From: Vampirovibrionaceae bacterium NZW_1234
GTDB taxonomy: Bacteria; Cyanobacteriota; Vampirovibrionia; Vampirovibrionales; JAGQHJ01
Reading direction: 5' to 3'
DNA: 64,000 nucleotides
Assembly (NCBI GenBank): GCA_041697335.1
Contig: JBGUGD010000002.1
Span: forward strand, 128,001 to 192,000
A program made the translations under genes and the position numbers. The notes beneath the pieces were generated by a model, which searched no databases, was not told where the DNA came from, and worked only from the letters and a program-made list of their open reading frames with translations. Each line of letters begins with the position of its first letter. Within the stretch, counting starts at the first letter, position 1. Positions 32,175 to 52,911 of the stretch are shown here, in pieces.

Positions 32175-32391
32175 GGGCTGCTTTTCGGCAAAACGAGAAA
32201 GACCGAATCCGGACTCGGCAATGATTCCCATTGTATACTTTTGCGATATTCCTTCGAAGCCTGTCCATTGAGTGATTTGACGATGGGCAAGGTCCTTCAT
32301 AGAATGGAAGAATCAATATACTGCCTTAGCGCAATATCCTGGCTTGAGCTGTTTTATAGCGCTAGTAGGATTTGATGGGTTATTATTGCCG

Positions 32392-33495
32392 ATGTCCGTA
32401 TCCGGAATTTTGTTGAAGCCTGCCATTGCTTCAGGGTTGACATTTGCGAAACGTTCGCACGATTTGGTGCCGCTTCGTTTCGGTAACCAGCCAGAAGCGC
32501 GCTCGATATTGTTGGAAGGCATTCTCAATCGTGCTCAAAAGCCCCTTCCAAAAACGACCTGGGATGTGGTCGATCAATATCGCTTCTTAGGGACGATTCT
32601 AGTCTGTTCGTTATTTGCGAATCTTGCACATTTGGCCAGCCGACTGATTCCCTGGTTTAAGCGCTTACAAAACAAGTTGGAAAGCTGGGCCATTTTCCAA
32701 TCCTCATCTACAGCAAGTATTCAGAAGCTTGCTTCAACACGCCTGCGTGAGGAAATTGGTGAGGAACGCTACTTTACAACGCCTCAAGGGAACAAAATTC
32801 ATTATTGGTATGTTCCGGCAAAAGGGGATAAGCCAACCGTTCTTTATGCGCACGGCAATTTTGGTAATATGAATCATCGTGAGTATATTATTGACCAGTT
32901 TACCAAGGCAGGGTATGGGTTTATGATTTTCGATCCCCGAGGCTATGGCAATAGTACGGGGCAATCTTCGGAAGAAGGAATGTATGAAGATTACGAAGCC
33001 GCAAGCCGCCATCTGGAGAAGCGGCATCGGATTCCGTTAGCAAACCAAATTGCCGCCGGGGAATCCCTCGGAGGCGGAATTGTAACCCATGTGGCGCAGA
33101 CTCGAAAGTTCAAGGCTGTTATCTTATGTGCTACTTTTACATCAATTCCTGATGTGTTTCGGCATTTGAAGTCTCGATTTTCTTTACTGGGGTGGTTTTT
33201 ACCTTCAGAAGATAAAGTACAGCAGCAGTTTCGCTCCCTGGATAAGATTGCTAATATCAAATCCCCGCTGGTATTTATCCATGGGGACTTTGACGATGTT
33301 GTCCCAATGTCGATGACCAGACGGTTGTTTCAAGAGGCGCGCCAAACCCCGTTGAAATGTTATATTACGGTTCGAGGGGCGGAGCACTGTGTCAATGCAT
33401 TCCCCTTCGATCAATTAATCCCTCGCCTGGGTGCCTTTATCCAAAAGGTTGATGCCTTAAAAACCGCTAATAGGACTACGGATTCCGCCCGATAA
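32392..33495 (+). CDS. alpha/beta hydrolase (BEM46/ABHD13-like) with N-terminal extension
   Basis: YAHGN, DPRGYGNS, GESLGG (Ser), IHGDFDDVVP (Asp), GAEH (His). Confidence 0.9.
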   Translation: MSVSGILLKPAIASGLTFAKRSHDLVPLRFGNQPEARSILLEGILNRAQKPLPKTTWDVVDQYRFLGTILVCSLFANLAHLASRLIPWFKRLQNKLESWAIFQSSSTASIQKLASTRLREEIGEERYFTTPQGNKIHYWYVPAKGDKPTVLYAHGNFGNMNHREYIIDQFTKAGYGFMIFDPRGYGNSTGQSSEEGMYEDYEAASRHLEKRHRIPLANQIAAGESLGGGIVTHVAQTRKFKAVILCATFTSIPDVFRHLKSRFSLLGWFLPSEDKVQQQFRSLDKIANIKSPLVFIHGDFDDVVPMSMTRRLFQEARQTPLKCYITVRGAEHCVNAFPFDQLIPRLGAFIQKVDALKTANRTTDSAR

Positions 33496-37179: not shown

Positions 37180-38277
37180 ATGGTCAATCGCATGCTTTTA
37201 AATCCAAATGGTAATTTCGTCGGTGGTGCCGGCTTCGGCATGAACGCCAATTTACGCTTGAACTTGGCATTAAATGCAAGTCTTCGTTTTAATGGCAATT
37301 TTGGTACAGCCAGTTCGTTACCCATTGGTTTGGGTACCGGTTGGGGTAGCGGCACCGGTTTCGGGGTCAACCCGGGCTGGGGTAGCGGTATCGGGTTTAA
37401 TCCCAATCTGGGTATTGGCTTGGGTGGCAATGCTAGCTTCGGTATGAATCCGGGCTGGGGGCTGAACCCTGGGTTTGGAATGAATCCCGGCTGGGGCGTT
37501 AATCCCGGCTTTGGAATGAATCCCGGTTTGGCTGGTGGTGGTGCCGGCTTTGGCTGGGGTGGCGGTGCTGGAGGTTTTGGCAGCGTAGGTTTTAATCCTG
37601 GATTTGGAACCTCTGGCTTTGGTACCGGTGGTTTTGGTGTCACCATTAGCGGCAATATCAATTGGAATATGGCTGGAGGTATTGGCGGTCGTGTCAATAC
37701 GGGTGGCGGCATAGGCGGCACTGTGACCGGTGGTGGTACAGTGACGGGAGGCGGTACTGTCACAGGAACAATCCCAGCACCTCGCCCTCGTCGTCGTGAC
37801 CCCTTGGCCTTGGATATGGGCAGTGGTATCGGGGTTCAACGCACCAATAATGGCTTTGATTTAACCGGTCGTGGCAATCGTGCGGCCGAGTGGTTCCGTC
37901 CCGCAGGTGATCAGACTCCGGCCATTGTTGTTCGCCCTGATGCAGATGGTCAGGTTCGGGATGGTCGAAACCTGTTTGGAGATGCCAATGGGGATCGCAA
38001 CGGTTTTAATGCGCTGGCTCGCTATGATGATAACCGGGATGGCCGTGTGGACGCCCAAGAGGCCCTGCGTCACGGAATTGCTCTGTGGCAGGATCGCAAT
38101 GGCAATGGCCGTGTAGACGCCGGTGAAATGAGCAGCTTCGGCCAGCTTGGCGTAGCCTCTATTGATACGAATTACCGTGAGACCAATGATGAAGTTTTAC
38201 GGCAGCAAGGGCGTTTTACCCGGACTAACGGAACAACCGGCCTTGCGGCTGATGCTTGGTTGGCAAGCCGGTCTTAA
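37180..38277 (+). CDS. Gly-rich low-complexity protein with C-terminal FrpC-type self-processing (Asp-Pro) module
   Basis: D207-P208 in RRRDPLALD, followed by FD, DG..DGRNLFGD, GFNALARYDDNRDGRVD, LWQDRNGNG, LGVASID, QQGRFT..GTT..D, all in SPM order. Confidence 0.8.
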   Translation: MVNRMLLNPNGNFVGGAGFGMNANLRLNLALNASLRFNGNFGTASSLPIGLGTGWGSGTGFGVNPGWGSGIGFNPNLGIGLGGNASFGMNPGWGLNPGFGMNPGWGVNPGFGMNPGLAGGGAGFGWGGGAGGFGSVGFNPGFGTSGFGTGGFGVTISGNINWNMAGGIGGRVNTGGGIGGTVTGGGTVTGGGTVTGTIPAPRPRRRDPLALDMGSGIGVQRTNNGFDLTGRGNRAAEWFRPAGDQTPAIVVRPDADGQVRDGRNLFGDANGDRNGFNALARYDDNRDGRVDAQEALRHGIALWQDRNGNGRVDAGEMSSFGQLGVASIDTNYRETNDEVLRQQGRFTRTNGTTGLAADAWLASRS

Positions 38278-44127: not shown

Positions 44128-44517
44128 TTAGGACAAGCGCTTTGGGGCGCCTTCACCTGTTTCGAAACGGTCTCGAAGGATTTGAACACCCTTGCCTAAG
44201 GCTGTTGCTAGCCAAAAAATAGCAGTGGAGGGTGTTGAATAACTGCCGACAACCGGCTCAGCCAGGGGGCGCTGATGAGGGTCGATGATGTCGATTGTTA
44301 CAGATTGGGGGGGCGACTGGTCTCGGTTGTGATGCTGAACGTTCAGATGAATACCTTCGGCATCGAGTTGGTTGACAATGCTTGCCAGGGAATGACGTGC
44401 ATTTTGAAAATCCTGAATCAGTTGGGGCCGATGATGAGGATTATAGTCATCTTCATGGGCAATGGTCACTTTGCCAAAACGCGGCAAAGGCATGAGCGAG
44501 GGGGTAATGCGGACCAT
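44128..44517 (-). CDS. hypothetical protein
   Basis: 129 aa; AAGGAG RBS; N-terminal PLPRFG. Confidence 0.7.
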   Translation of the reverse strand: MVRITPSLMPLPRFGKVTIAHEDDYNPHHRPQLIQDFQNARHSLASIVNQLDAEGIHLNVQHHNRDQSPPQSVTIDIIDPHQRPLAEPVVGSYSTPSTAIFWLATALGKGVQILRDRFETGEGAPKRLS

Positions 44518-44558: not shown

Positions 44559-45212
44559 CTAATAGGGTTTCTCGGGATTGACATCCGGACGGTATTCAAG
44601 CGGGAGATTGGTGTCAGGGTGAATTCGTGGGCTGAGGCCCCCGATAGTTAGAGCAAAGCGTCGAAGCGCACTTGACATGCCCCCCAAAATACTCGGATCG
44701 TGGGTCTGAGCACTCATCGTTAAGACTTTACCTTGGTGTGTTTCCACCACCTCAGGATTGACCTTCAAGAGTTGCTGACGTCGTAACACTATGGCTGTGG
44801 GGAACAGACGAGGGAAATTGGCAAATTCGGTTTTAGCCTTTTGAATTTCGTTATCACTGGCACGTGAATAAATGCCGAGCTGGAATTCTGCCGTCGGGGT
44901 TTCAGACGGTTCCACCGGAAGCCATCGATGAATGAATGCTTTTAACGGGGCCAGGAGCTTCATATCTTCTTCATCGGTGGTGTGATCGATATACGTGCTC
45001 AGTACACGTCCTGTTGGAGTCTGTTGAATCCTGTACTGGTGTCGAATACTGTACTTTCTTGGTAAAACACTGGTAAAGGCATCCGAGGTCGGCAAGTCAC
45101 GCCAAGCGTCCAGCAGCTGCTTTTCATCCCGCCGTCGAAGGCCTTGAGGAAGTTGGATGCGAAACTCGCCACTACCAAACCTAGTCTTAGAACAAGAATC
45201 ATTTGTTTTCAT
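44559..45212 (-). CDS. hypothetical protein
   Basis: 217-aa ORF co-oriented with its neighbours; N-terminal KTRFG. Confidence 0.65.
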   Translation of the reverse strand: MKTNDSCSKTRFGSGEFRIQLPQGLRRRDEKQLLDAWRDLPTSDAFTSVLPRKYSIRHQYRIQQTPTGRVLSTYIDHTTDEEDMKLLAPLKAFIHRWLPVEPSETPTAEFQLGIYSRASDNEIQKAKTEFANFPRLFPTAIVLRRQQLLKVNPEVVETHQGKVLTMSAQTHDPSILGGMSSALRRFALTIGGLSPRIHPDTNLPLEYRPDVNPEKPY

Positions 45213-45438: not shown

Positions 45439-46215
45439 ATGATGCGTTCTATACAATTATCGCCAGCCCTGGCTGGTCAGATGGCTTATTGCAATCGCAT
45501 GCCATTCACACCCAAAGAGCTGGGTTTTCGAAATATACCCGACTCCAAAGTTCTACTCGTTTCAAAAGAGGTGGGTCAGAAGTCCGACCCTGCTGTCCGC
45601 TTTGGATTAGGCCGACGCAGCTTTGTGGGTTTAATGAGTACTTTGGTGGGAGGTATGGTTTTTATCCTCTCCTCACTCATTGTTCCCTCAATCTATCGAC
45701 CTGTGGGGAATACTCCTGAACGTATTGTCTCAACCTTGCCGAAAGCAACGGGACAGGCGATTGATAACATTAAGGTGGCTAATCCCACCGGGAATCCAAC
45801 TTATAGTCAGGTTCAGGAGCAACTAAGGACAGCACACCAACAATTACAGAATGACTGGAAGCCTGGACAGGGTAATGCGATTCCCAATTTAGAAAAACTT
45901 TCACCGGCTGAGCAACGGGCCACCAATGAATCTCTAAACCGGATGCTTCGTTTGGTTCGGTGTCGCCATGCGGGTGACATTGATCTGGCTCGTAAAGAAT
46001 ATATTCGCTGGACCCAGGATGTCCTGGCAACTCGGGTGGATGCTGAAACCCTGCGAGCTGTTCAGGACTATGGCACTGAGGCACTTGGACCTGTGTCCAA
46101 CGAATTTGATGCCCAAGCCAGAGTATGGTTCATCATTGCGGCTGGTATTGGTGTTGCTGTTGCAGGGACGGCGGCCTACAAGCTCAATCGTTGGACAAAA
46201 GATGATGATATCTAG
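45439..46215 (+). CDS. hypothetical two-TM membrane protein
   Basis: AGGAG RBS; PAVRFG precedes the first TM; second TM at the C-terminus. Confidence 0.75.
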   Translation: MMRSIQLSPALAGQMAYCNRMPFTPKELGFRNIPDSKVLLVSKEVGQKSDPAVRFGLGRRSFVGLMSTLVGGMVFILSSLIVPSIYRPVGNTPERIVSTLPKATGQAIDNIKVANPTGNPTYSQVQEQLRTAHQQLQNDWKPGQGNAIPNLEKLSPAEQRATNESLNRMLRLVRCRHAGDIDLARKEYIRWTQDVLATRVDAETLRAVQDYGTEALGPVSNEFDAQARVWFIIAAGIGVAVAGTAAYKLNRWTKDDDI

Positions 46216-48094: not shown

Positions 48095-48910
48095 TTAAGG
48101 GGTGGTATGGATGTCTTCAATTTGAATGGGCTTTTTGGGGTCTCTGAGAGTACTGGTGTCGAAAAACTGCTCGTTCATTGCGCCCGAAAAGCAGTTTTCA
48201 AAGATGCACACCGTATGATCGAATGCCTGGGAAGCATCCACAATCGGCTTAAAGACATCCTGTTCATGGACCAAGTGACTTTTCCGCCATCCCATCCGCT
48301 CCTCCTTGTTCCGATTTTGGAAGAGGAGAACGCTTTCCATATTGGGATCGGTATTTGGCATTTGAGGCGTATTTGCTTCATTGCTACTGGTGCACACATT
48401 TTGAGGCTTTTTGATACTCGAACGCAGGACTGTTCCATGCATGGTGGAATCTACAATTAAATGATCTCCCTCTTCTGTTTTGCCTCGTGTTTTGGCATCT
48501 GATAGATGCTTTTCAAATTCCTCGAAGGTATCGGCGGTTTTCACCTCGTATCCTAGCCCTTCATAGCGTTCGGTTTTTTCTTCGAGGCCTTTTTCAAACA
48601 TTGCCTTCTCGCTCGCATCATTGGGTTGACCGGCGACCAGGATGGCCGTGCCTTTGTTTTTACGATTTGGATTTGCAACCGTGTCAGGCAGAGGAGCCCC
48701 GTAGCTCTGCGGTGTTTGTGGGCTCTCAATCAACGACTCCGGAAACCCCTTTTGTTGAATGTCTTCATGGGCCTGTTTTAAGCTATGCCCATTCCGAATA
48801 CGTTCTGTTAGTGCACCGGAATAAACACCGCCGTGTTCATAATCCCCATGGGAGATTTGGTTAGGCTGGCTGGCAGTGAGAATCGAAATGCGGGGTGTGA
48901 CTTTATCCAT
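48095..48910 (-). CDS. circularly permuted caspase-like (clan CD) peptidase, tandem copy B
   Basis: N-terminal ISILTAS..GGVYSGAL..QTPQSYG, then TAILVAG..GYEV..GDHLIVDSTMHG..VCIFENCFSG. GAGGAG RBS before MDKVTP. Confidence 0.75.
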   Translation of the reverse strand: MDKVTPRISILTASQPNQISHGDYEHGGVYSGALTERIRNGHSLKQAHEDIQQKGFPESLIESPQTPQSYGAPLPDTVANPNRKNKGTAILVAGQPNDASEKAMFEKGLEEKTERYEGLGYEVKTADTFEEFEKHLSDAKTRGKTEEGDHLIVDSTMHGTVLRSSIKKPQNVCTSSNEANTPQMPNTDPNMESVLLFQNRNKEERMGWRKSHLVHEQDVFKPIVDASQAFDHTVCIFENCFSGAMNEQFFDTSTLRDPKKPIQIEDIHTTP

Positions 48911-49015
48911 AGCAATGCTCCTCTTGTATATTCCGTGGAAACGAACTAATAGAAACATCACTTTGATAATACTAATAGAAGAAAGCCGTTTGGTGGCATA
49001 TTTAGAAGAGTAATC

Positions 49016-49834
49016 TTACGGGCTCCTGTAAATATCGTCGTATTTGATGGGAGGTGTCGGCTGATTGGTTTCGGATTGCAGAAACTGATCGTTGAGAGCG
49101 CCCGAATAGCAACTGTCAAAAATACAAACGGTATGATCGAAAGATTCAGCTGCATCGACGATGGGTTTAAAGACATCCCGCTCATGTACAAGATTGCTAT
49201 CCTTTAATCCAAACTGTCTTGTCTCGTCTGGGTTTCTGAAAAGCAGGACCCCTTCCTGATTGGGATTTGGTGAGGGTGGTCTGGTAGCGGACGGTGATGT
49301 ACCGCTGATACTGGAGTTCAGCACGCTGCCATGCATGGAGGCATCTACAATCAGGTGATCGTTCTCTTCGGTGGCACCCCGGGCTTTTGCATCTGACAGG
49401 TGTTTCTTGAATTCGTCAAACGTTTCTGCTGTTTTGACTTGATATCCCAGACTTTCGTAAAGAGTGGTTTTTGTTTTGACATCGTTTAGAAATTTATCTT
49501 TATCCGCTGCGTGTTTGGTTTGGCCGGTGACTACAATGGCAGTGCCTTTGTTTTTGCTACTTGGGTTTGCGACTTCGTTAGGAACGGGTAAGCCATAGCT
49601 TTGGGGGCGCTGGTTGAGCGTTTCGTCGGGTTTGATTCCCTGCAAGCCACTTTGTACCAACTCCTGGTGGGCTTGTTTCAGGGGGTGTCCGTTTTGAATG
49701 CGTTCTGCCAGGGCTTGTGAATAAAGCCCGCCGTTGCCGTCACTGCGGTGATTTGCGACGCGATGTGGTTCACTGGCAGTCAGCACGGAAATTTTGGGAA
49801 ACGTTGGTTCCACAGCCAAATCCCTTTTAGTCAA
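49016..49834 (-). CDS. circularly permuted caspase-like (clan CD) peptidase, tandem copy A; alternative GTG start at 49813
   Basis: ISVLTAS..GGLYSQAL..QRPQSYG, then TAIVVTG..GYQV..DHLIVDASMHG..VCIFDSCYSG. Confidence 0.75.
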   Translation of the reverse strand: MTKRDLAVEPTFPKISVLTASEPHRVANHRSDGNGGLYSQALAERIQNGHPLKQAHQELVQSGLQGIKPDETLNQRPQSYGLPVPNEVANPSSKNKGTAIVVTGQTKHAADKDKFLNDVKTKTTLYESLGYQVKTAETFDEFKKHLSDAKARGATEENDHLIVDASMHGSVLNSSISGTSPSATRPPSPNPNQEGVLLFRNPDETRQFGLKDSNLVHERDVFKPIVDAAESFDHTVCIFDSCYSGALNDQFLQSETNQPTPPIKYDDIYRSP

Positions 49835-49891: not shown

Positions 49892-50056
49892 ACATAGTGT
49901 TAATGTGCGGTAATGATGGCTGGAGTGGGCTTTTCAAGACAATTAAGGCACGTACTTGGGTATTTGCTAAGGAAAGCTGTTGGCTACGAGACCTGTGCAT
50001 GCATTAGACACAGCTTATTCTAAGGAGAATATCTAATACATTCCAGGCAGTGATGG

Positions 50057-50310
50057 CTAATCTTTTATGAAACTATGGATGATTTCGAGTACCTGTGGGC
50101 CTGCATGCTCGACAAGGTGTCGTGAGAGAACTTTGTCCCGAGCTCTATCGCCCAGTTGTCTGCACAGATCGGGATTATCCTGAAGAAGGCAAATTTTTTG
50201 CAGGTAAGTTTCCAAGTCCAAATATGGAACTAACAATCCTGCATCAGACTCAACCAACTCTTTGGTACCATTTCCTTTATCAAAACATATAATAGGGTTG
50301 CCAAAATAGC
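50057..50310 (-). pseudogene. C-terminal remnant of a GT4-family glycosyltransferase
   Basis: Frame reads YFGNPIICFDKGNGTKELVESDAGLLVPYLD...RQLGDRARDKV. In-frame stop just upstream and no N-terminal part. Confidence 0.65.
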
Positions 50311-50502
50311 ATTTAGGGGGAGACTTTTAACTATGGTACGGGCTCAAGACCTTAGGGGAAAGATATCCAGTAACGTAAATGTAAATATAAAAATAAGTCT
50401 GTCTGATCTGTCTGAATTGATTCATAAGATTAATATTGGTTCAAATGCAAAATAAAATTACGAAGATCTTGGTAGGGATTTTGTTGTATCAATAAGCATA
50501 AC

Positions 50503-51567
50503 TTATACGATTTTTTGTTTATTCTTTGCTGGAAACAAATCATAAAGAATATTAAGTCGGGTGAAAGCATAATTATGTTGGCCAATGGTTAGTATTTCTT
50601 TGAATACCAAAAACCACCGCTTCCAAGTTAGTGAGGGAAGGCTTGTCAGTGTTTGCAAATGGTTGATGCGCTTATCTAAAATCAATTGTTTTTCCTGAGA
50701 GAAAAAGAACTCTGTTTGAGAAAGTAATTTTGCCTTAATGCTTTGTAGTTGGTTGAGCTGGTTAGTTTTTGCTGTCTCATATTTGTTCTTTTCTTTGGTG
50801 TAATCCGTTAGAAAGAAACTAAGCACTCGCAAGGCACGAGTTATAACAGTGTTTTTATGTCCTGCCCCGCCAAGATTTGAGTCATGTTGACGGTAATAAA
50901 GAAGGGGTTTGTCTATTATTCTGCAAGGAGCCACAGCGCTAACCATAATAGTAATCCACTGATCAGAAGCAATGCCACCTTCTAGAGTTCCCTTTGAAGT
51001 TATATGGCAAGGCATAGGGATTATTAGAGGCTCAAAACATTTTTTGAACGCTAGTGTTGCACCATAAGCATTTGGATTGAAAATTGCAGTAAAGAAATAG
51101 TCGTTATTATGATCTTTACTCCGGTTGAGATTTTTTGACGAGGCGTATTGAAAAACTTCTCCAAGAGAATTCTTACAAGTTGAGTCTGTAATAATCGCAT
51201 TACTAAAAACGAAGCCAATATCAGGATGATTTTCAAACTCATCCAGTATTCGAGCAATTCGGTCAGGGAGCATAACATCATCGGCATCGAGATTGATGAG
51301 GATATCGCCTTGAGCAGCTTTAATAATGTTGTTGAGTGTTGAAGAAAGTCCTCTATTTTCAACATTTTTTAAGATCTTAACGGGAAAAGGTGCCTGAGAA
51401 GAAAAGGCTTCCAGGATGTCTAGGGTTTTATCAGTAGAGCCATCGTCGCAAACAACAAATTCATCGGGCAATATAGTTTGCCCCAATAAACTATTTAGCT
51501 GCTCTTCCAAGAACTTTTCAGCATTGTAGGCAGCCATAATTGCAGAGATATTGTATCGATTACTCAT
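50503..51567 (-). CDS. GT2 family glycosyltransferase (AT-rich)
   Basis: SAIMAAYN, VCDDGSTD, LDADD, SDQW, YYRQH. Confidence 0.92.
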   Translation of the reverse strand: MSNRYNISAIMAAYNAEKFLEEQLNSLLGQTILPDEFVVCDDGSTDKTLDILEAFSSQAPFPVKILKNVENRGLSSTLNNIIKAAQGDILINLDADDVMLPDRIARILDEFENHPDIGFVFSNAIITDSTCKNSLGEVFQYASSKNLNRSKDHNNDYFFTAIFNPNAYGATLAFKKCFEPLIIPMPCHITSKGTLEGGIASDQWITIMVSAVAPCRIIDKPLLYYRQHDSNLGGAGHKNTVITRALRVLSFFLTDYTKEKNKYETAKTNQLNQLQSIKAKLLSQTEFFFSQEKQLILDKRINHLQTLTSLPSLTWKRWFLVFKEILTIGQHNYAFTRLNILYDLFPAKNKQKIV

Positions 51568-51828
51568 GAAGGCAATTTGATAAAGTCATTACAAACCAAG
51601 CTGGTTCGGGAACGCTAAATTTAGCGTAACTTTATTATACTAGCTTTATCTTTATTCTATAGAACGATTGCGTGTTCTTTTGGTTGTCCTGAAGTTAAGG
51701 GGTATATTCTGTGTATATGTAACAAACTATTACAACTTCTATATTAGATTGGATGAATTAAGCAATCTTGTCATTTATTTTGTTTTTATATTCATATAGG
51801 AATATACAGAGTTAATGGAGAAGCTAAC

Positions 51829-52911
51829 ATGTCTCTTGCTGCCAATATTCGTGGCAACCAAAGTTATCAGGCTGTTCCCTGGAACACGGGTGCATTTCCC
51901 AATTCACGGGCTGTTGCCGAATTTACCGGTCCTTTTGGTGTAGGTCAAGGCTTTATTAAAAACGGTGGTACGATTTCGATGGGTCCTGGTGGCCTCTCGA
52001 CTGAAGTGTCTTTTGCCCCCGGTTACTTTGCAACCCCGGCAAACACTGCGAACGGCTTAGGCTTGGCGTCGCCTTTTGCGACTACTAACAATTATCTCGA
52101 CCAGATTGGTCAAAACAGTTTCGGTATGAACAACCCCTACAGTCCGCTGTATGGGACGCCATATGATGTTCCCAATAGCGTTCTGGCGCTGGGTTCTTTC
52201 GGTGGCTACCAGGATGCATTCAGTCCTTACAGTGGCAGTGGTGTTCCCTCCCTCGATAATGGTTTTGGTAGTTTCGGCCCAACCGGCGGTGTACCCGGCT
52301 TTGGTGGCGCCCCCGGTGGTTTCGGTGGCGTGCCCGGCTTTGGGGGTGCTCCTGGCGGCTTTGCCGGCGCTCCTGGTTTCGGTGGCGCTCCCGGCGGTTT
52401 CGGTGGTCCTTCCGGCTTCGGAGGTGCTAACGCATTCGCTGGTGCTCCCGGTGGTTTTGGCGGTCCTTCTGGATTCCCCAGACCCGGTGGCGGTGGCGTT
52501 CCTGCCCAAAGCTTCCCTAATCTTTACAATAACCCTGCGATTTTTGGACGAGTTCCCAATAACGTTATTCCCGGTATTGGCCAGTCCTTTGTTCAACGTG
52601 GTGGTGGCTTCCAGAATAATGTTAACCTGGTTGAAGATGGTGTCGGTAGACTTCTGCTTCAATCCCAGGCAGATCCAAACACCCCGGTTACAACCCGTGG
52701 TGCCGGTGGTTACCTCAGAACGCCCTTCGGTATCTTTGAGACCGGAGTGGGCTGGTTGGGTGGTAACGCCAACGCAGGTATCCTGGGTGCGCAGGCATCC
52801 GGTATGGCTTGGGCGAAAGTCCGCAGTGCGGTTAACCCAGCGATTATTACCGGATATGCGAATCCCTTCTATAACAACTACAACTTTAACCAAGGCTTCA
52901 CCAACGCTTAA
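51829..52911 (+). CDS. Gly/Phe/Asn-rich low-complexity protein with central PGFGGAPGG repeats
   Basis: GGAG RBS, 360 aa, followed by a terminator; repeats at about 52285-52470. Confidence 0.8.
   Translation: MSLAANIRGNQSYQAVPWNTGAFPNSRAVAEFTGPFGVGQGFIKNGGTISMGPGGLSTEVSFAPGYFATPANTANGLGLASPFATTNNYLDQIGQNSFGMNNPYSPLYGTPYDVPNSVLALGSFGGYQDAFSPYSGSGVPSLDNGFGSFGPTGGVPGFGGAPGGFGGVPGFGGAPGGFAGAPGFGGAPGGFGGPSGFGGANAFAGAPGGFGGPSGFPRPGGGGVPAQSFPNLYNNPAIFGRVPNNVIPGIGQSFVQRGGGFQNNVNLVEDGVGRLLLQSQADPNTPVTTRGAGGYLRTPFGIFETGVGWLGGNANAGILGAQASGMAWAKVRSAVNPAIITGYANPFYNNYNFNQGFTNA

Follow-up and report, generated by a model that had tools for sequence, protein, structure and literature searches.

The window, by which we mean the whole stretch of 64,000 nucleotides that was analysed, contains two adjacent genes on its minus strand that code for caspase-like proteins. 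Their parts and catalytic residues, together with a third and distant family member encoded elsewhere in the window, are collected in Table 1. The preliminary description of this DNA announced two paralogues of about 270 amino acids: both open reading frames are present on the minus strand, but gene 1 is seven codons shorter than it was first read, starting at GTG 49813 and not at TTG 49834. The GTG is the most likely start since a purine run lies 7 nucleotides upstream of it, and since the N-termini of the two proteins then align; gene 2 is preceded by a Shine-Dalgarno-like run at the same distance, and the database protein P0003, likewise 265 amino acids long, agrees with this choice. The order of motifs given for the two chains, LTAS, GG(V/L)YSxAL, LKQAH and PQSYG, followed by GTAI, MHG and C(Y/F)SG, is found in both ORFs; their ends, placed about 25 residues past the catalytic Cys, lie in fact 30 and 31 residues past it.

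Table 1. Features of the gene pair and of the third family member, in window positions.
Feature	Position	Strand	Remarks
Gene 1 (P0003)	49016..49813	-	Permuted caspase-like protease, 265 aa, GTG start, without leader or signal peptide
Gene 1 p10-like half, residues 8-74	49592..49792	-	Strand, two helices, strand; Pfam C14 positions 161-222; DSSP E8-12, H30-40, H45-55, E71-74
Gene 1 linker, residues 75-89	49547..49591	-	Joins former C-terminus to former N-terminus; from model and sequence
Gene 1 p20-like half, residues 90-238	49100..49546	-	Alignments to metacaspases
Gene 1 His161	49331-49333	-	Catalytic His by alignment
Gene 1 Cys235	49109-49111	-	Catalytic Cys by alignment
Gene 1 predicted S1 residues Asp111, Ser159, Asp233	within p20-like half	-	Alignment to metacaspases and available text of PMC4357240
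Shine-Dalgarno-like purine run	49821..49828	-	7 nt before gene 1 GTG; from sequence, putative function
Spacer, gene 1 TAA to gene 2 ATG	48911..49015	-	105 nt, in frame, stop-free; contains predicted gene 2 ribosome-binding site (48918-48925)
Gene 2 (P0001)	48095..48910	-	Paralogue, 271 aa, ATG start
Gene 2 p10-like half, residues 8-71	48698..48889	-	Pfam C14 and half-profiles
Gene 2 p20-like half, residues 87-243	48182..48652	-	Half-profiles
Gene 2 His158	48437-48439	-	Catalytic His by alignment
Gene 2 Cys240	48191-48193	-	Catalytic Cys by alignment
Gene 2 S1 positions Gly108, Thr156, Glu238	within p20-like half	-	Alignment
Third, distant family member, 509 aa	30052..31581	-	N-terminal extension of ~250 residues, then permuted domain with His and Cys; domain model pLDDT 89.3

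The two proteins are identical at 54% of the positions of an alignment of 271 columns and, to judge from the sequences, arose by a recent tandem duplication. Over 260 codons, the genes differ at 82 first, 58 second and 162 third positions, a concentration at third positions that points to selection on both. The neighbouring genes, an aldehyde dehydrogenase and a glycosyltransferase according to Pfam, give no functional clue, and scans for promoters and terminators around the pair return counts at chance level. Upstream of the pair, at window positions 50000-52000, the GC content drops to 38% in the surroundings of the glycosyltransferase gene; that of the protease genes is about 49%. The DNA of the window is found in public runs from hot springs and microbial mats, probably representing few independent samples: no RNA is listed among these runs, and for the contigs of four of them no difference from the pair is listed.

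The preliminary description also proposed that both proteins are circularly permuted proteases of clan CD, in which p10 stands ahead of p20, and profiles, a structure model and the family at large all support this reading. Pfam Peptidase_C14, a profile that assumes the ordinary order, scores the pair below its cut-off of 21.4 bits (21.3 and 18.0 bits, E 2.3e-4 and 2.4e-3) and matches only the N-terminal part of each protein: the first 54-78 residues align with profile positions 161-222 of 233, the end of the profile. Twelve of 20 family members match C14 at E<=0.1, the best of them at 2.7e-11, and two match C25 weakly. With none of the 20 matching C13 or CHAT at that threshold, membership in the legumain or CHAT families is rejected. 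Half-profiles were then built from 26 relatives, with the pair and its clade left out. The p10 half-profile falls on residues 6-76 of both proteins, with 30.5 and 40.3 bits, and the p20 half-profile on residues 85-247, with 44.4 and 38.0 bits; the best scores obtained from 400 shuffled controls are 2.7 and 5.0 bits.

Comparisons with other enzymes give the same picture. The 20-row family profile aligns crosswise with GSU0716: profile positions 100-231 correspond to residues 29-150 of the chain (E 5.5e-8), and profile positions 11-71 to residues 205-266, a segment that is not significant alone. Metacaspases and caspases, like GSU0716, are matched in their p20 part by the second half of this profile. 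The best sequence matches of a 34-row profile are metacaspases, from E 5.5e-10 (metacaspase-4) to 1.3e-5, and the p10 profile of the family matches nine ordinary ORFs downstream of their p20, with 10-16 bits.

Gene 1, as modelled by AlphaFold (pLDDT 89.3, pTM 0.90), has six core strands and short loop-3 strands. Strands 8-12 and 71-74 precede the four p20 strands; in this alpha/beta core, His161 comes after strand E153-159 and Cys235 after strand E227-233, and the C-terminal tail is ordered, with pLDDT 77-90. The top four Foldseek matches of the model are engineered permuted caspase-2 chains (E 2.6e-8 to 1.8e-7), aligned over 265-279 columns with TMq 0.55-0.58; natural-order chains, among the matches listed, align over about 155-200 columns with TMq 0.30-0.35. 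VIA-align, applied to 48,161 chains, aligns 190 residues of 8vp4_A to model residues 1-236 with Z 17.2 and rmsd 2.8; for the natural-order caspases, metacaspases and legumains, Z does not exceed 8.3, and most of the alignments begin at residue 76 and so cover p20 only. No structure of a type III enzyme is among the matches. Neither program thus finds a known natural-order family that is collinear over the whole chain, and the N-terminal part would complete the fold, as had been expected of it: it contributes two strands and two helices, which match the small subunit of permuted caspase-2. From this superposition we infer that His and Cys are juxtaposed in gene 1. A homodimer prediction scored 0.00 with controls that did not fold, and the score counts neither for nor against a dimer. 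Altogether, it is close to certain that both genes encode clan CD proteins whose p10 half lies ahead of the p20 half with His and Cys, a natural circular permutation of the caspase fold.

The catalytic dyad is intact, as first described: both proteins have the His-Gly and Cys-x-Ser-Gly motifs, and the 34 members of the family alignment, whose mean column identity is 18%, all have the Cys, 33 of them with the His. Of the residues expected in the S1 pocket, Asp111 of gene 1 aligns with the Asp of the GCxND motif of metacaspases, and Asp233 with the Asp that precedes their Cys. Gene 1 keeps the whole Asp/Ser/Asp triad, gene 2 has Gly, Thr and Glu in its place, and both aspartates are found in just 12 of 34 members, so a specificity for Arg or Lys cannot be family-wide. 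On these alignments, gene 1 probably retains a pocket of the Arg/Lys type and cuts after these residues, and is very likely to be catalytically active; the substitutions in gene 2 suggest divergence after the duplication, and its specificity is probably shifted, or its activity lower. The positions that carry the S1 Arg and Gln of caspases proper (C14A; roles taken from the available text of PMC4357240) hold no conserved Arg or Gln in the family, being acidic or Gly, and membership in that group is rejected.

Calcium-site positions were mapped through alignments to type I, type II and bacterial enzymes and through spacing, not through a type III sequence. The SGCxD-type Asp of p10 is found in none of the 34 members, and the Asp at Cys+7 in gene 1 alone; another position of the site is acidic, a Glu, in 32 of 34. 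A loop-3 pattern is found in 0 of 55 permuted and 7 of 63 ordinary proteins, which is a weak test.

A six-frame search of the host genome yields ten permuted paralogues. The third member in the window shares 13-14% identity with the pair, and the top four Foldseek matches of its domain are again the engineered permuted caspase-2 chains. One host paralogue (L055, G000 C34:31634-32779) carries Glu where the catalytic His would be, with a hydrophobic segment upstream, and is a candidate pseudo-protease; in another (L026, G000 C14:35979-37214), p10 and p20 are separated by a long insert of some 130 residues that is charged and probably helical. The pair itself has no leader, with only 4-5 residues ahead of the first strand, where its closest relatives have 3-39; at the other end, several relatives stop 6-8 residues past the Cys. 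The window also contains Gly-rich low-complexity ORFs with short repeats, at 51829-52911 and 37180-38277, the first of which has no Pfam match.

Two further features of the host genome concern protein export. The motif [PVIL]-x-F-G, often PRFG, occurs at the N-termini of 160 of 2200 proteins longer than 200 amino acids, versus 41 in an internal window, and is a candidate export signal; its instances in the window are at 44128-44517, 44559-45212, 45439-46215 and 32344-33495. A typical flagellar-type export set lies on one contig (G000 C2; L142, L246), and a divergent second set on three others (C32:10110-19485, L144; C8, L247; C29, L248). The latter, possibly a flagellum-derived secretion system, has an FlhA below the curated cut-off, FliI, a FliH-like protein, FliF and FlgB/C, while FliP/Q/R and FlhB are encoded at other places. 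The gene table of V. chlorellavorus likewise lists two FlhA genes.

The PurA protein of the window groups with records of Melainabacteria and Gastranaerophilales (SH-aLRT 99, in a quick tree of one gene), which makes the host a member of the Vampirovibrionia. One record titled Gammaproteobacteria (L069) has its PurA inside the Melainabacteria clade, and is either a mislabelled bin or a case of transfer. Within the class, the 34-row profile matched 135 of 301 genomes; loci were read in 51 of these, while 84, including 75 of group f5, were left unread. The permuted order was read in 32 genomes, that is, 32 of 301 in the class and 32 of the 51 read: the host's own, and those of groups f1 (4/4), f2 (2/19), f3 (9/25), f6 (8/30) and f9 (8/12). 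Eighteen others showed the ordinary order only, among them 13 of f5 with one or two loci read per genome, and the last one a fragment. For 15 proteins, in which p10 scored below threshold, the order was called from a reading of the upstream sequence and from a chain ending soon past the Cys. Three long ORFs of f5 or cyanobacteria, whose matches start near the beginning of the profile, looked like possible intermediates with tandem domains; the loci that were read proved to hold ordinary single domains. Other tandem or near-tandem permuted pairs were noted in related genomes (G056 C1, G102 C3, G164 C138), as was, in another phylum, a tandem array of nine genes with ordinary caspase domains (G601 C96:329000-348500).

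Outside the class, none of the 54 caspase-like ORFs read has the permuted order; these are samples, 14 ORFs coming from 13 of 18 matching genomes of a phylum sample and 40 from around three other genomes, with one gene counted twice, and a distant permuted family could escape them. With the pair as query, 1.84 billion representatives gave 12 matches, of which the ten that are full-length and non-self are all permuted. Single-sequence searches recovered only the pair, with nothing significant among PDB sequences; when the 34-row alignment was the query, a protein search retrieved no proteins but those of the host genome. Phage sequences gave no significant match, plasmid sequences one weak and unrelated match, obtained with a relative as query, and two metagenome scans no confirmed relative. 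The look-alikes in the ESM Atlas belong to C14 clusters at 0.95 and have low counts of shared features.

Trees were computed on p20 alone, leaving out eight permuted rows; no tree includes a type III sequence. IQ-TREE separates 55 permuted rows from 62 ordinary ones with an SH-aLRT of 84.9, a support that is not starred, and FastTree places 54 of the 55, with one ordinary row, in a clade at 97, the remaining permuted row falling outside. Since the family was gathered with iterated profiles, such clustering of permuted rows was favoured from the start. The two genes pair with a support of 99 within a clade of metagenomic proteins that have no leader (86), and are closer to proteins of f6 than to the other paralogues of the host genome. 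The permuted proteases thus form an expanded lineage family in bacteria; their layout is in itself already known from algal and engineered enzymes.

What could such a permutation achieve? In caspases, the loop that follows the Cys needs cutting or reordering (available text of PMC4357240). Here, each gene would encode a single-chain cysteine endopeptidase with a His/Cys dyad, in which the N-terminal half presumably completes the six-stranded core, and the loop that caspases must cut would already be open-ended, because the chain stops about 30 residues past the Cys, or 6-8 in several relatives. The enzyme could then fold active without linker cleavage, as does the engineered permuted caspase-2, in which the subunit swap permits active folding without cleavage and confers constitutive activity (PMC7760212, in the part available). 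On this analogy, it is reasonably likely that cleavage of a linker is not needed for activity. However, the algal enzyme GtMCA-III, with a natural p10-p20 order, requires millimolar calcium and removal of a prodomain (PMC9626678 and PMC8455989, in part): natural enzymes of this order are not simply always on, and the analogy is limited. Most calcium-site aspartates being absent, and the pair having no prodomain, calcium-independent enzymes are favoured, probably without a switch of the metacaspase type; restraint could come from substrate access, or from the ordered C-terminal tail. The lack of a leader would place the pair in the cytoplasm, a location that we hold to be somewhat more probable than not, where they may be specific processing or signalling proteases. 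The permutation would have arisen once, early in part of the Vampirovibrionia, from an ancestor resembling orthocaspases or metacaspases, the pair being a later tandem duplication. Taken as a whole, a reverse caspase that is activation-free, cytoplasmic and of independent origin is a likely explanation, and the best one we have.

By a rival reading, the permutation is only apparent. The two genes share one frame, parted by a single TAA and 105 stop-free bases (a spacer free of stops occurs in 9.4% of shuffles, or about 3% when the frame is considered); a fused gene, split or read through at its stop, could then form an ordinary unit with the p20 of gene 1 and the p10 of gene 2. A Pfam search that ignores the stop does match profile positions 17-210 across the junction, with 31.2 bits, and the public contigs, from four runs, never span the TAA. 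However, any tandem pair of permuted genes yields such a match, each gene has its own predicted ribosome-binding site, gene 1 alone folds with high confidence in the model, and the same order recurs in dozens of single-domain relatives, several of which end 6-8 residues past the Cys. A fused gene is thus very improbable. It is also rather improbable that either gene, or both, encodes a pseudo-protease or a scaffold, with gene 2 perhaps regulating gene 1. An intact dyad is no guarantee of activity (PMC5756287, in the part available), in gene 2 the first S1 Asp is gone and the second is replaced by Glu, and one host paralogue has lost its His; against this stand the two motifs kept in both proteins, and a dyad that is nearly invariant in so divergent a family.

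More elaborate is the idea that the whole family, including the pair, consists of exported proteases, pre-activated by permutation, that act outside, or in a host or prey cell, after passing through the second flagellum-derived export apparatus. Most relatives have variable N-terminal extensions of 85-390 residues, several with the xxFG-type motif or a hydrophobic segment; the motif is enriched genome-wide; the host genome has two sets of FlhA, FlhB, FliP, FliI, FliF and FlgC; and V. chlorellavorus, a cultured relative, is a predator of algae (PMC4451040, in part). Two full FlhA genes are found in four of five genomes tested, the fifth having none and belonging to a family in which only ordinary caspases were read, and in one genome, G121, some 3 kb separate FlhA from a permuted gene. 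But the linkage to FlhA is seen at this one locus, G004, which has two FlhA genes, yields no match to the family, the pair begins 4-5 residues ahead of its first strand, and both a predatory host and the motif as an export signal are suppositions. We consider this export reading unlikely. Only slightly less doubtful is the broader conjecture that non-photosynthetic cyanobacteria independently invented reverse caspases, diversified their S1 pockets, and mostly export them by leaders through the second system into prey or host, the leaderless pair being the minimal catalytic module. The G121 locus (C134) also encodes, between the permuted gene and FlhA, a protein of 685 amino acids with a divergent His-Gly/Cys region resembling clan CD (L244:3059-5116); a protein of 526 amino acids made largely of helical repeats of about 30 residues is encoded at this locus as well (L244:80-1660).

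Finally, the pair could be bacterial relatives of algal type III metacaspases, by shared ancestry or by gene transfer. They have the p10-p20 order in common, metacaspases are the best sequence matches of the profile, gene 1 has the S1 triad and the Asp at Cys+7, and nearly all members have the acidic residue at the other calcium position. However, type III enzymes keep eight calcium-binding aspartates in two sites, some of them in p10 (PMC9626678, in part), which are mostly missing here; the core of the model has six strands, against eight in type I metacaspases (PMC4357240, in part); and the p10 half has about 67 residues, against 95.5 in type III (PMC3734836, in part). The lack of most calcium-site aspartates and of the extra strands makes an origin independent of type III likelier; we regard such an origin as quite likely, and kinship as rather improbable.

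The preliminary description knew of no bacterial family with this arrangement, and a literature search that left most subscription papers and bioRxiv supplements outside its coverage found no description of the family. In their available text, Choi and Berges detect no type III enzymes in bacteria (PMC3734836), and Klemencic et al. report no p10-first protein among 11,208 prokaryotic p20 sequences, at a p10 cut-off of 30 bits (PMC6426788); eight of the about ten Melainabacteria rows available in the latter's table all have at least 95 residues past p20. A term search of PMC4933709 gives nothing, the available text of PMC8195603 has no bearing on the family, and the words 'caspase' and 'C14' are absent from the V. 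chlorellavorus paper and 12 supplements (PMC4451040), one scanned file lying outside this coverage. Profile surveys miss the permuted family because each half scores below cut-offs. Its small single-domain proteins make it possible to test whether natural swapping of the halves dispenses with cleavage and calcium, and to ask whether the p10-first order evolved repeatedly; with their varied S1 pockets, these compact proteases could also serve as tools, and they suggest that a poorly known lineage has biology still to be explored.

Among known systems, legumain and PIGK (C13), CHAT and the paracaspase MALT1 belong to the same clan, and their p20 regions superpose with Z 5.4-8.1, but they match gene 1 only from residue ~78-87 onward. 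The bacterial orthocaspases and type I metacaspases (GSU0716, PDB 3bij; MaOC1) are closest in p20 sequence, at E 1.8e-8, and are the likely ancestral stock; unlike the pair, they have the ordinary order, each of the 54 ORFs read outside the class having at least 93 residues past p20, and are mostly fused with large extra domains. The engineered circularly permuted caspase-2 (JF1cpCasp2; PDB 8vp4, 9c2y) is the best structural match of gene 1 and has the same subunit swap, but it was made from human caspase-2, shares 13-16% identity with the pair and is Asp-specific, whereas the predicted S1 pocket of gene 1 is acidic. The type III metacaspases (GtMCA-III, PtMCA-IIIc; MEROPS C14B) are alike in having p10 ahead of p20 in one chain and a His/Cys dyad, with the S1 triad of gene 1 as well; they have a prodomain, which the pair lacks, and they come from algae with secondary plastids. 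The p10-before-p20 layout has been treated as specific to these algae, a boundary that a bacterial family of such proteases overturns.
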